Origin: an uncultured Chloroflexia bacterium
GTDB lineage: Bacteria; Chloroflexota; Limnocylindria; Limnocylindrales; CSP1-4
Direction: 5' to 3'
NCBI GenBank assembly: GCA_963767945.1
Contig: CAVYGH010000011.1
Coordinates: 353,599-417,598, forward strand
Length of the DNA stretch: 64,000 nt
Numbering within the stretch: the stretch's first letter is position 1; every line of letters begins with the position of its first letter. The position numbers were made by a program, and so were the translations under genes. The notes below the pieces were generated by a model, which did no database searches, was not told where the DNA came from, and saw only the letters and a program-made list of their open reading frames with translations. Positions 34,940 through 35,036 of the stretch are shown one piece after another.

Positions 34940-34953
34940 TGCCCCATCGGGCA
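34940..34953. promoter_or_regulatory. Operator-like palindrome, copy 1 (one mismatch)
   Basis: TGCCCCATCGGGCA, compared with the perfect palindrome TGCCCGATCGGGCA. It lies in the divergent intergenic region. Confidence 0.55.
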
Positions 34954-34999
34954 GATCGCCGGGTGCCGTGTGGGGGCTCCGGCCGGCGGCCCAGCCGCG

Positions 35000-35013
35000 T
35001 GCCCGATCGGGCA
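35000..35013. promoter_or_regulatory. Operator-like perfect 14-bp palindrome, copy 2
   Basis: TGCCCGATCGGGCA, which is self-complementary. Confidence 0.6.
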
Positions 35014-35022
35014 AGCCGCCAG

Positions 35023-35036
35023 TGCCCGATCGGGCA
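35023..35036. promoter_or_regulatory. Operator-like perfect 14-bp palindrome, copy 3
   Basis: TGCCCGATCGGGCA, 23 bp centre-to-centre from copy 2. Confidence 0.6.

Follow-up and report, generated by a model that had tools for sequence, protein, structure and literature searches.

Dimers of DosR/DevR-type regulators of the NarL/FixJ family bind GC-rich inverted repeats with arms of about 5 bp that lie about one helical turn apart, and the geometry of a GerE/NarL-type dimer is that of a dyad whose 5-bp arms enclose 4 central bp, the DosR box being an example. The operators of this family are often multiple and are situated upstream of the -35 element. Winged-helix proteins bind head-to-tail, SARPs use direct repeats, and SARP sites normally overlap the -35 element.

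Contractile injection systems (CIS) of the Streptomyces type, phage-tail-like machines that may be cytoplasmic or extracellular, occur widely. What they carry and how they are controlled is poorly known, and one LuxR-type activator is known genetically. In S. coelicolor and S. lividans, the CIS cluster (SLP genes) contains a LuxR/GerE-type gene, SCO4263/SlpR, as well as divergent promoter regions (PMC2000904, PMC8505568, PMC10020575). Transcription of the sheath operon depends on SCO4263 (PMC2000904), and the production of particles on SlpR (PMC8505568). Neither a binding site for SCO4263/SlpR nor a regulon outside the cluster was found described in the literature searched. GerE genes flank 25.8% of eCIS loci, according to a domain-enrichment statistic that did not define an operator, a promoter architecture or a trans-acting regulon (Geller et al. 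2021, PMC8213781). N-terminal loading sequences of eCIS cargo are known from AlgoCIS Cgo1/2 and, as payload signal peptides, from PVC, where a system-specific N-terminus is combined with variable enzyme domains (PMC11495950). One preprint reports a lack of conservation of loading sequences from one eCIS to another (bioRxiv 10.64898/2026.05.27.728243).

The window considered here, that is, the whole stretch of 64 kb that was analysed, corresponds to positions 353599-417598 of contig C11 in a draft genome (3.98 Mb, 22 contigs, 72.5% GC) of an uncultured bacterium from soil, for which the closest records carry the label Chloroflexota/Ca. Limnocylindria. Between two divergent genes for leader-tagged, peptidase-like proteins it carries three palindromes, which may be regarded as "CIS boxes", the predicted site of a factor that would co-regulate the CIS and its cargo genes. 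The genome resembles S. coelicolor and S. lividans in having a LuxR/GerE-type gene and divergent promoter regions in its CIS cluster; in contrast to what is described for SCO4263/SlpR, the box here also marks unlinked genes of predicted cargo, and the host is uncultured. With the GerE regulators of Geller et al. (2021, PMC8213781), the regulator of the present cluster shares the domain PF00196, the genomic association and the proposed role as an eCIS regulator. The half-site sequence differs from that of the DosR/DevR box. The shared leader region resembles the eCIS loading sequences in its layout and also heads the DUF4157 protein of the cluster, and a function in cargo loading is predicted by analogy; unlike the AlgoCIS and PVC loading sequences, it has a sharply conserved LQRxxGNxAV core that is common to several phyla.

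The palindromes and their flanking genes

The three palindromes (Table 1) stand out as the strongest copies that this genome has of a 14-bp promoter box. Two perfect copies with starts 23 bp apart had been described in the sequence-only reading, and both were confirmed. A third copy had been listed there as carrying one mismatch; the mismatch is present, but since it falls within the variable central 4 nt, this copy (box A) is a full-consensus site. The consensus is TGCCC-N4-GGGCA, not the full 14-mer. With a position weight matrix (PWM), box B reaches the maximum possible score of 22.5 bits, and box A, whose centre lies 54.5 nt upstream of the GTG at 34892, scores 20.3 bits and ranks fourth in the genome. 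The centre of box C is located at about -53.5 relative to the predicted start of the plus transcript. Paired sites 22-23 bp apart, like boxes B and C, were seen again in relatives and in the Pvc16 promoter. The weak box-like site next to box A is a tentative assignment and may be due to chance; the orthologue of the minus gene in a related genome (G015) has CGCCCGTTCGGGCC at 23 bp from its own box, which can be compared with it.

Table 1. Sites and genes at the divergent promoter, with positions in the window
Feature	Position	Strand	Description
Box A, TGCCCCATCGGGCA	34940..34953	.	Perfect arms, variant centre; proximal site of the minus gene
Box B, TGCCCGATCGGGCA	35000..35013	.	Full consensus; centre at about -76.5 from the predicted plus-transcript start
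Box C, TGCCCGATCGGGCA	35023..35036	.	Full consensus; begins 23 bp after the start of box B
Weak box-like site, TGCCGTGTGGGGGC	34964..34977	.	Three arm mismatches; starts 24 bp after box A
Minus gene	34088..34892	-	GTG at 34892; leader LQRIHGNAAV (34692-34721); DUF922 split over two frames
-10-like TACGGT	34899..34904	-	6 nt ahead of the minus-gene GTG
Plus gene	35076..36833	+	Leader LQRQAGNAAV (35228-35257); frame break near 36.36 kb
-10-like TATCGT	35070..35075	+	Predicted -10 of the plus gene, 33 nt downstream of box C
Small partner ORF	36836..37267	+	143 aa, directly after the plus gene

No further copy of the 14-mer is present in the 64-kb window, even when two mismatches are allowed, in agreement with the earlier observation on the full sequence. 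The genome as a whole (3.98 Mb) contains 3 exact copies, 9 with at most one mismatch and 59 with at most two, and both arms are perfect at 11 sites. From Markov models of order 1-5, 0.08-0.18 exact copies are expected, compared with the 3 observed; the probability of at least three exact copies is about 8e-4, a value in which the clustering within 97 bp was left out of the calculation. The genome scan that the sequence-only reading had recommended thus revealed a rare motif (3 exact and 11 perfect-arm copies), and not the high-copy, REP-like element named there as a refutation.

The palindromes are not an assembly artefact, because an independent short-read contig from an unrelated soil metagenome reproduces positions 34939-35156 with no substitutions and a single one-base length difference, located outside the boxes. 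The codon-position signal, measured as third-position GC, is absent in every frame between about 34900 and 35150, and this stretch is therefore regarded as non-coding despite two long open frames, as had been assumed. The position given earlier as the first possible start of the plus gene, 35051, did not hold as such: the same frame is open from a GTG at 34970, and the frame on the minus strand stays open as far as 35117.

In the minus gene, the block LIASLQRIHGNAAVQRLL follows after about 55 residues and precedes a DUF922 domain, which we take to be of the predicted Zn-peptidase type; the reading frame is broken near 34.43 kb. The TACGGT hexamer predicts a leaderless transcript for this gene. 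Two orthologues were found in the genus, and the one in G015 (L075) is preceded by an identical TGCCCCATCGGGCA at an identical distance and has the same arrangement of -10 hexamer and start.

The plus gene comprises ILELQRQAGNAAVTDLL, a stretch of about 380 aa that lacks a family match and, in another frame, a Cys/His peptidase-like C-terminus (QQFGNSCGP ... HYVVV ... HDVW). No Pfam or NCBIfam match was obtained for this gene or for the small partner ORF, even when the intact orthologue of genome G019 was used. This orthologue (L058), the single one in 40 genomes of the genus, is an uninterrupted ORF of 600 aa; it has a TATCGT hexamer 34 nt after its box and is followed by a 159-aa ORF homologous to the 143-aa ORF of the window, which by its position only is a candidate immunity or accessory protein. 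As starts of the plus gene, GTG 35051, GTG 35074 and GTG 35109 were weighed, and none is compatible at once with the conserved TATCGT and with the frame of the leader. The positions of boxes C and B at -53.5 and -76.5 depend on TATCGT being taken as the -10 element. The 5' region of the plus gene shows a length difference from the short-read contig, which covers only part of this region, and short-read contigs from other soils have single-base length changes near both frame breaks as well as in the 5' region. Because these soil contigs differ by one base there, the frame breaks of the minus and plus genes are probably errors of this assembly, intact copies existing in nature. Since the two genes have few orthologues in the genus, analogous promoters were used for footprinting.

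Distribution of the box and of leader genes

Five genes of the genome were identified by a six-frame search for the leader core. The DUF4157 gene of the CIS cluster brings the number to six; its leader, LMHLQRTAGNAGV, was missed by the first pattern. In the six proteins, LQRxxGNxAV follows a Pro/Ala/Arg-rich stretch of about 50-75 aa, and the C-termini of leader proteins differ (DUF922, Cys-peptidase-like, PG_binding_1, DUF6782). The genes that flank the palindromes likewise combine a shared N-terminal region with variable effector domains, a layout consistent with a putative role as eCIS cargo. A box lies 200-320 nt upstream of the leader codons in five of the six LQRxxGNxAV genes, the leader gene at C11:327871 having no box upstream. 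The third exact palindrome of the genome (C9:105673) is located 83 nt before the ATG of a gene for a leader-tagged peptidoglycan-binding protein, and a one-mismatch copy (C13:482537) is found ahead of a gene combining the leader with a DUF6782 metallopeptidase-like domain. Ahead of the DUF4157 gene of the CIS cluster, DUF4157 being an eCIS core domain, there is TGCCCCTTGGGGCA (C13:77954).

The genome contains a single CIS cluster, found through Pvc16_N on contig C13. Its sheath, tube and baseplate genes are on one strand and the Pvc16, AAA ATPase and DUF4157 genes on the other; the divergent promoter between the sheath and Pvc16 genes contains TGCCCGAACGGGCG. When a PWM was built from the Pvc16 sites of other species only, its top four hits in this genome were the C9 site and the three boxes of the window, and seven of the top ten hits lay in promoters of CIS or leader genes. 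The hit at C13:706176 (19.3 bits) overlaps the last codons of a minus-strand ORF and has no Rfam match; it was set aside as probably a chance occurrence or a terminator-like hairpin. Three further hits (C13:212172, C4:161879 and C13:97891) are within regions read as coding and were also discarded. The hit at C8:47584 is upstream of a gene for a secreted repeat protein.

The exact 14-mer occurs in 0-3 copies per genome in 36 genomes of the genus. Outside the present genome there are 15 loci with exact copies, 12 of which precede a leader gene and one Pvc16. An alignment of the sheath/Pvc16 intergenic regions placed the TGCCC and GGGCA arms at one position in all 23 sequences (23/23), with variation in the central 4 nt only. 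Two extra TGCCC half-sites, which lie 22 and 34 nt further downstream, are also visible in the alignment, and each of the two genes has a -10-like hexamer. In a separate analysis, 30 leader genes of the genus were gathered by a DNA pattern of the leader, blind to the box, and a box was defined as arms with at most one mismatch within 450 nt. Such a box was present upstream of 20 of the 30 genes, versus 1 of 30 in the downstream control; with a background of 0.02 boxes per 450 nt, the probability of this result is about 4e-27. The other 10 leader genes lack a box within the 450 nt upstream. Leader genes also occur together with the GerE regulator discussed below, being present in 22 of 25 genomes that have it and in 0 of 16 that lack it (Fisher P = 9e-9). 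G003, a draft estimated to be 88% complete, was recorded as an exception: it has a box and a leader gene and gave no Pvc16 or GerE match; a BTAD gene is present there at a contig end.

Beyond the genus, a scan based on Pvc16 alignments, with one genome per species, yielded 80 loci in records labelled Chloroflexota/Ca. Limnocylindria, Dormibacterota and, in many cases, Actinomycetota. A box was found upstream of Pvc16 in 58 of these 80 loci versus 0 of 80 coding controls, and 44 of the 58 boxes start 80-90 nt before the Pvc16 start codon. At most of the boxless loci another gene, not a promoter, is in front of Pvc16. Across 63 sites, conservation of the arms is 90% or higher and the centre varies. 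Leader genes in 19 of these genomes had a box upstream in 11 of 20 cases (0/20 in controls). Of the 13 TGCCC-N4-GGGCA sites in the complete genome of Streptomyces tritici, 3 are no more than 13 kb away from the CIS cluster (P about 2e-6). The sheath gene is preceded by one of these, and another directly follows the AAA ATPase gene, an arrangement also seen in the present genome. A deviant box, TGCCGGTACCGGCA, is found in Streptomyces sp. Ru73. The conservation check proposed in the sequence-only reading therefore had a positive outcome, the box being kept upstream of orthologous and analogous genes both in the genus and in other phyla. That reading had also seen in the palindromes the site of a dimeric regulator and, as no regulator gene adjoins them, a possible link to a distant regulon, which agrees well with the occurrence of the other copies, on other contigs, ahead of leader-tagged genes and of CIS operons.

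The candidate regulator and alternative explanations

The candidate binder is encoded at C13:78764-79426, next to the DUF4157 gene and 3.7 kb from Pvc16_N. It is a protein of 220 aa with a GerE helix-turn-helix (PF00196) and a receiver-like N-terminal half, and it shows full-length similarity to VraR, ChrA, DevR and NarL; in contrast to the NarL/FixJ family, the receiver-like domain may lack the usual acidic pocket, as judged by eye. Orthologues with 73-94% identity are present in 25 of 41 genomes of the genus, including all 23 that have Pvc16, and in nearly all CIS-positive genomes of the genus the gene is 4-30 kb from Pvc16 on the same contig. Of 22 cross-phylum genomes, 21 also have an orthologue, situated close to the cluster wherever the contigs show its surroundings, and the recognition helix S(E/Q)RT(V/I)KN is conserved among these proteins. 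In S. tritici, which has a box before its sheath gene, the CIS cluster encodes an orthologue that is 54% identical over its full length. Features expected of such a regulator and its operator are present: an inverted repeat, TGCCC-N4-GGGCA, with half-sites about one helical turn apart, a GerE-domain protein that accompanies the sites, and a LuxR-type regulator gene within a CIS cluster of the Streptomyces type.

The sequence-only reading had recommended a search for an autoregulated transcription factor. The search led to this conserved candidate in the CIS cluster, and within the genus GGGCA-N8-TGCCC is conserved upstream of its gene, so that half-sites do exist at its own promoter; across phyla, box-like sites were found upstream of the regulator gene at only 6 of 20 loci. 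The regulator promoter has a TTGACT/TAGGGT pair 20 nt apart, a spacing that makes the promoter assignment uncertain.

All promoter positions given here rest on -10-like hexamers and start codons; no RNA runs containing the window stretch were found. In many box-associated genes a NANNNT hexamer occupies -12 to -7 of the start codon, ending 6 nt before it, as is typical of leaderless transcripts. With GACGAT as the hexamer of Pvc16, the centre of its box is at -77.5 from the predicted start. For the sheath gene, GACGGT predicts a 5'UTR of 32 nt and a box centre at -76.5, so the single box between these genes lies 76.5 and 77.5 nt from two predicted divergent starts. The S1-mapped start of the sheath transcript of S. 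coelicolor is also 32 nt before the ATG (PMC2000904), the distance predicted here. At other genes the box centres are at -54.5, -64.5, -75.5 to -77.5 and -98.5, in steps of one or two helical turns, and the target promoters are without good -35 elements. Phased sites upstream of the -35 region, together with poor -35 elements, point to activation by recruitment.

A rare box that is associated with CIS and leader genes in the genome, in the genus and in three phyla, at a fixed position and in company with a conserved and syntenic regulator, is very probably a regulatory protein site of the CIS regulon. The interpretation of the palindromes as a regulator site is in this way supported and extended, the regulon being that of a contractile injection system, with binding and the direction of regulation as predicted parts. 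The fuller statement, that the box is the CIS-regulon site of the GerE-type protein of the cluster and that this protein acts as an activator, is also considered probable, with somewhat more reserve; here the identity of the binder, activation and the transcription starts are inferred from sequence. According to this model, the binder would be a relative of Streptomyces SCO4263/SlpR, one dimer of which would contact the two 5-bp arms, and box pairs 22-23 bp apart, such as B and C, would accommodate two dimers side by side on the same helical face. Bound at about -54, -65, -77 or -99, the protein would recruit RNA polymerase to weak promoters by class-I-type activation. In the window, the minus gene would be controlled from box A (-54.5) and the plus gene from boxes B and C (-76.5 and -53.5); activation of the two leader-tagged, peptidase-like genes would then coincide with that of the sheath, tube and baseplate operons on another contig.

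A different binder was considered, since the cluster encodes a second regulator, a protein of about 1000 aa with STAND-ATPase, OmpR-type winged-helix and BTAD parts (SARP-like; C13:57605-60907) in which Trans_reg_C and BTAD domains are present. The box could be an operator for this protein, or for both proteins together, which is judged unlikely. Its STAND-wHTH-BTAD orthologues occur in 23 of 41 genomes of the genus, about 14 kb from Pvc16, and are equally conserved and syntenic; in most cross-phylum genomes a BTAD gene is near the cluster, sometimes directly beside the GerE gene, and BTAD counts among the eCIS "shell" domains (PMC8213781). Direct TGCCC repeats 12 bp apart are also present beside the -35 region of the Pvc16 promoter, an arrangement that would suit a winged-helix protein. 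The boxes themselves, however, form a perfect dyad, which fits GerE/NarL dimers and not head-to-tail winged-helix binding, and are at -54 to -99 instead of over the -35 element. Two genomes (G076 and G078) have the box and a GerE orthologue but only BTAD hits of 30% identity on other contigs, and a box-containing draft of 2.5 Mb (G083) has no BTAD match. In S. coelicolor, moreover, the sheath is no longer transcribed when only the LuxR-type gene is lost (PMC2000904). The dyad, the far-upstream position, Streptomyces genetics and these two or three BTAD-poor genomes favour the GerE-type protein over the BTAD protein.

As to the direction of control, clustered perfect palindromes are typical of repressor operators, and tight control would be of benefit with toxic cargo and a machine released by lysis; the GerE-type protein or another one could therefore keep the CIS and its cargo silent until a signal arrives. 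If GTG 35051 were the true leaderless start, box C would adjoin a possible -10 element, CAGCAT (35037-35042). Repression is nevertheless held to be distinctly improbable. Wherever a -10 element and a start can be proposed, the box is upstream of -35, helically phased and off the core promoter, the target promoters have poor -35 elements, and TATCGT, conserved with the G019 orthologue, puts box C at -53.5; in Streptomyces, the homologous protein acts as an activator (PMC2000904, PMC8505568). There is very little likelihood that the palindromes are structural or mobile elements, i.e. a hairpin acting as terminator or attenuator, a REP-like repeat or a recombination site for cargo exchange, even though boxes B and C can form a hairpin of 16-17 bp (-34.5 kcal/mol, z = -4.4), cargo genes vary between species (one orthologue of the plus gene in 40 genus genomes) and one box is 14 nt after a tRNA gene. 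The arms are invariant without compensatory changes while the centre varies, which indicates recognition of sequence and not of structure; the distance from box to start codon is fixed across phyla for structural genes; and no Rfam match was obtained in the two stretches tested, both of them other box-like sites and not the window. A REP-like repeat was rejected on the very low copy number (9 copies with at most one mismatch here, and 0-3 exact copies in each relative). For an intrinsic terminator, a hairpin is possible but is not followed by a T-run, and the boxes are between two divergent gene starts. The long B/C hairpin as an RNA element was likewise discarded: it follows from the presence of two identical palindromes and is absent in relatives, where the second site is degenerate. 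An exact match to the 14-mer in PMC3814375 is a synthetic oligonucleotide in a methods paper on DNA purification and is irrelevant.

Implications for contractile injection systems

The box is ordinary as a transcription-factor site, and what appears undescribed is its identity, its fixed position across phyla and its reach to unlinked cargo genes; no paper describing the TGCCC-N4-GGGCA motif was found in the literature searched. That a cis-element has kept its position in different phyla implies joint inheritance or transfer of the regulator, the operator and the machine. It was further considered that the box and an SlpR-type regulator form one ancient module, kept with this type of CIS across at least three phyla (Chloroflexota, Dormibacterota and Actinomycetota, including Streptomyces) and recruiting unlinked toxin or cargo genes by means of a shared box and leader, a proposal for and against which the chances seem evenly balanced.

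For the window, activation by the GerE-type protein would explain why two unrelated peptidase-like genes have a promoter region in common, and would tie them to a machine encoded on another contig. The box allows distant cargo genes to be found that searches based on clusters or adjacency (e.g. PMC8213781) would miss, and it can be tested directly in laboratory streptomycetes, where the reading as an ancient module, if true, predicts the binding site of SCO4263/SlpR in the model species. If it is true, the combined signature of box and leader would also read out the complete CIS cargo repertoire in thousands of genomes.

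Leader core shared by the enzyme-like genes

The core motif LQRxxGNxAV was common to unrelated enzyme-like proteins and to the DUF4157 protein of the contractile injection system (CIS) cluster, six genes in total (see table). It was also present in genomes of other phyla having this type of CIS. Within the genus, the motif was found only where the cluster's GerE-type regulator gene was also present, and 20 of the 22 genus genomes carrying the leader had a detectable Pvc16 gene. The leader, which is without a Pfam model, is likely a cargo-loading or adaptor-binding tag. Two tandem ORFs with double-psi beta-barrel domains lie immediately on the 3' side of the minus gene, which encodes the leader-DUF922 protein.

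Coordinates of the leader cores, neighbouring genes and second regulator (C11 is the contig that contains the window; C9 and C13 are other contigs of the same genome)
Feature	Location	Strand	Remark
DPBB_1 ORFs, tandem (RlpA/lytic-transglycosylase-like double-psi beta-barrel)	window 32756-33385, 33460-34077	+
Leader core, minus gene	window 34692-34721	-
Leader core, plus gene	window 35228-35257	+
Orn/DAP/Arg decarboxylase-type PLP enzyme	window 37285-38901	+	immediately after the small partner ORF
Leader core, other four genes	C9:105903; C11:327871; C13:482830; C13:~78190
STAND ATPase + OmpR-type winged helix + BTAD protein	C13:57605-60907		outside the window, edge of the CIS cluster

Reading-frame breaks in the assembly

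Several genes of the assembly change frame in mid-domain, at 34400-34460 and 36340-36520 in the window, at C13:78200-78300 in the DUF4157 gene and in the Pvc16 frame. Short-read contigs of other soil metagenomes differ by single-base length changes near the window breaks, and the orthologue of the plus gene in another genome of the genus (G019) is intact. The breaks look like assembly errors rather than pseudogenes.

Regulator genes of the CIS cluster

Upstream of the GerE regulator gene (C13:79427-79607 and loci L045-L056), TGCCCGTTAAG adjoining TTGACT is kept in the genus, and a TA(G/C)GGT hexamer occurs 20 nt beyond TTGACT. A standard sigma-70 promoter has a shorter spacing, so the two hexamers are tentative promoter elements. 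The second regulator, at the cluster edge, has an unusual domain order that begins with the ATPase. In the genus, in Actinomycetota and in Dormibacterota it is conserved and keeps its synteny with the CIS, and its gene is sometimes the immediate neighbour of the GerE gene.

Boxes within and outside the window

Boxes B and C, copies of the candidate CIS-regulon site TGCCC-N4-GGGCA, are identical palindromes, and therefore a single strand of 35000-35036 can form a hairpin with a 16-17-bp stem (-34.5 kcal/mol), which may allow cruciform formation or affect read-through transcripts.

On C13, a box and a leader gene encoding a DUF6782 metallopeptidase-like protein with an annexin-like repeat start directly after a tRNA gene (C13:482440-482900). 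The box lies 14 nt past the tRNA 3' end, an adjacency that may hint at tRNA-site insertion. The sequence TGCCGGATCGGGCA was observed in an AT-richer spacer at C8:47584, on a further contig (15.2 bits with the matrix derived from Pvc16 sites of other species). The spacer precedes the first gene of a pair that encodes paralogous secreted proteins with PVETES-type repeats, and the site may mark a further member of the regulon or be a chance occurrence.

In Streptomyces sp. Ru73 (locus L168), the GerE gene immediately precedes Pvc16, and the spacer between them contains a perfect palindrome of different sequence, TGCCGGTACCGGCA, 74 nt before Pvc16. The palindrome may be a divergent form of the box and offers a useful case for a test of co-variation between recognition helix and box.
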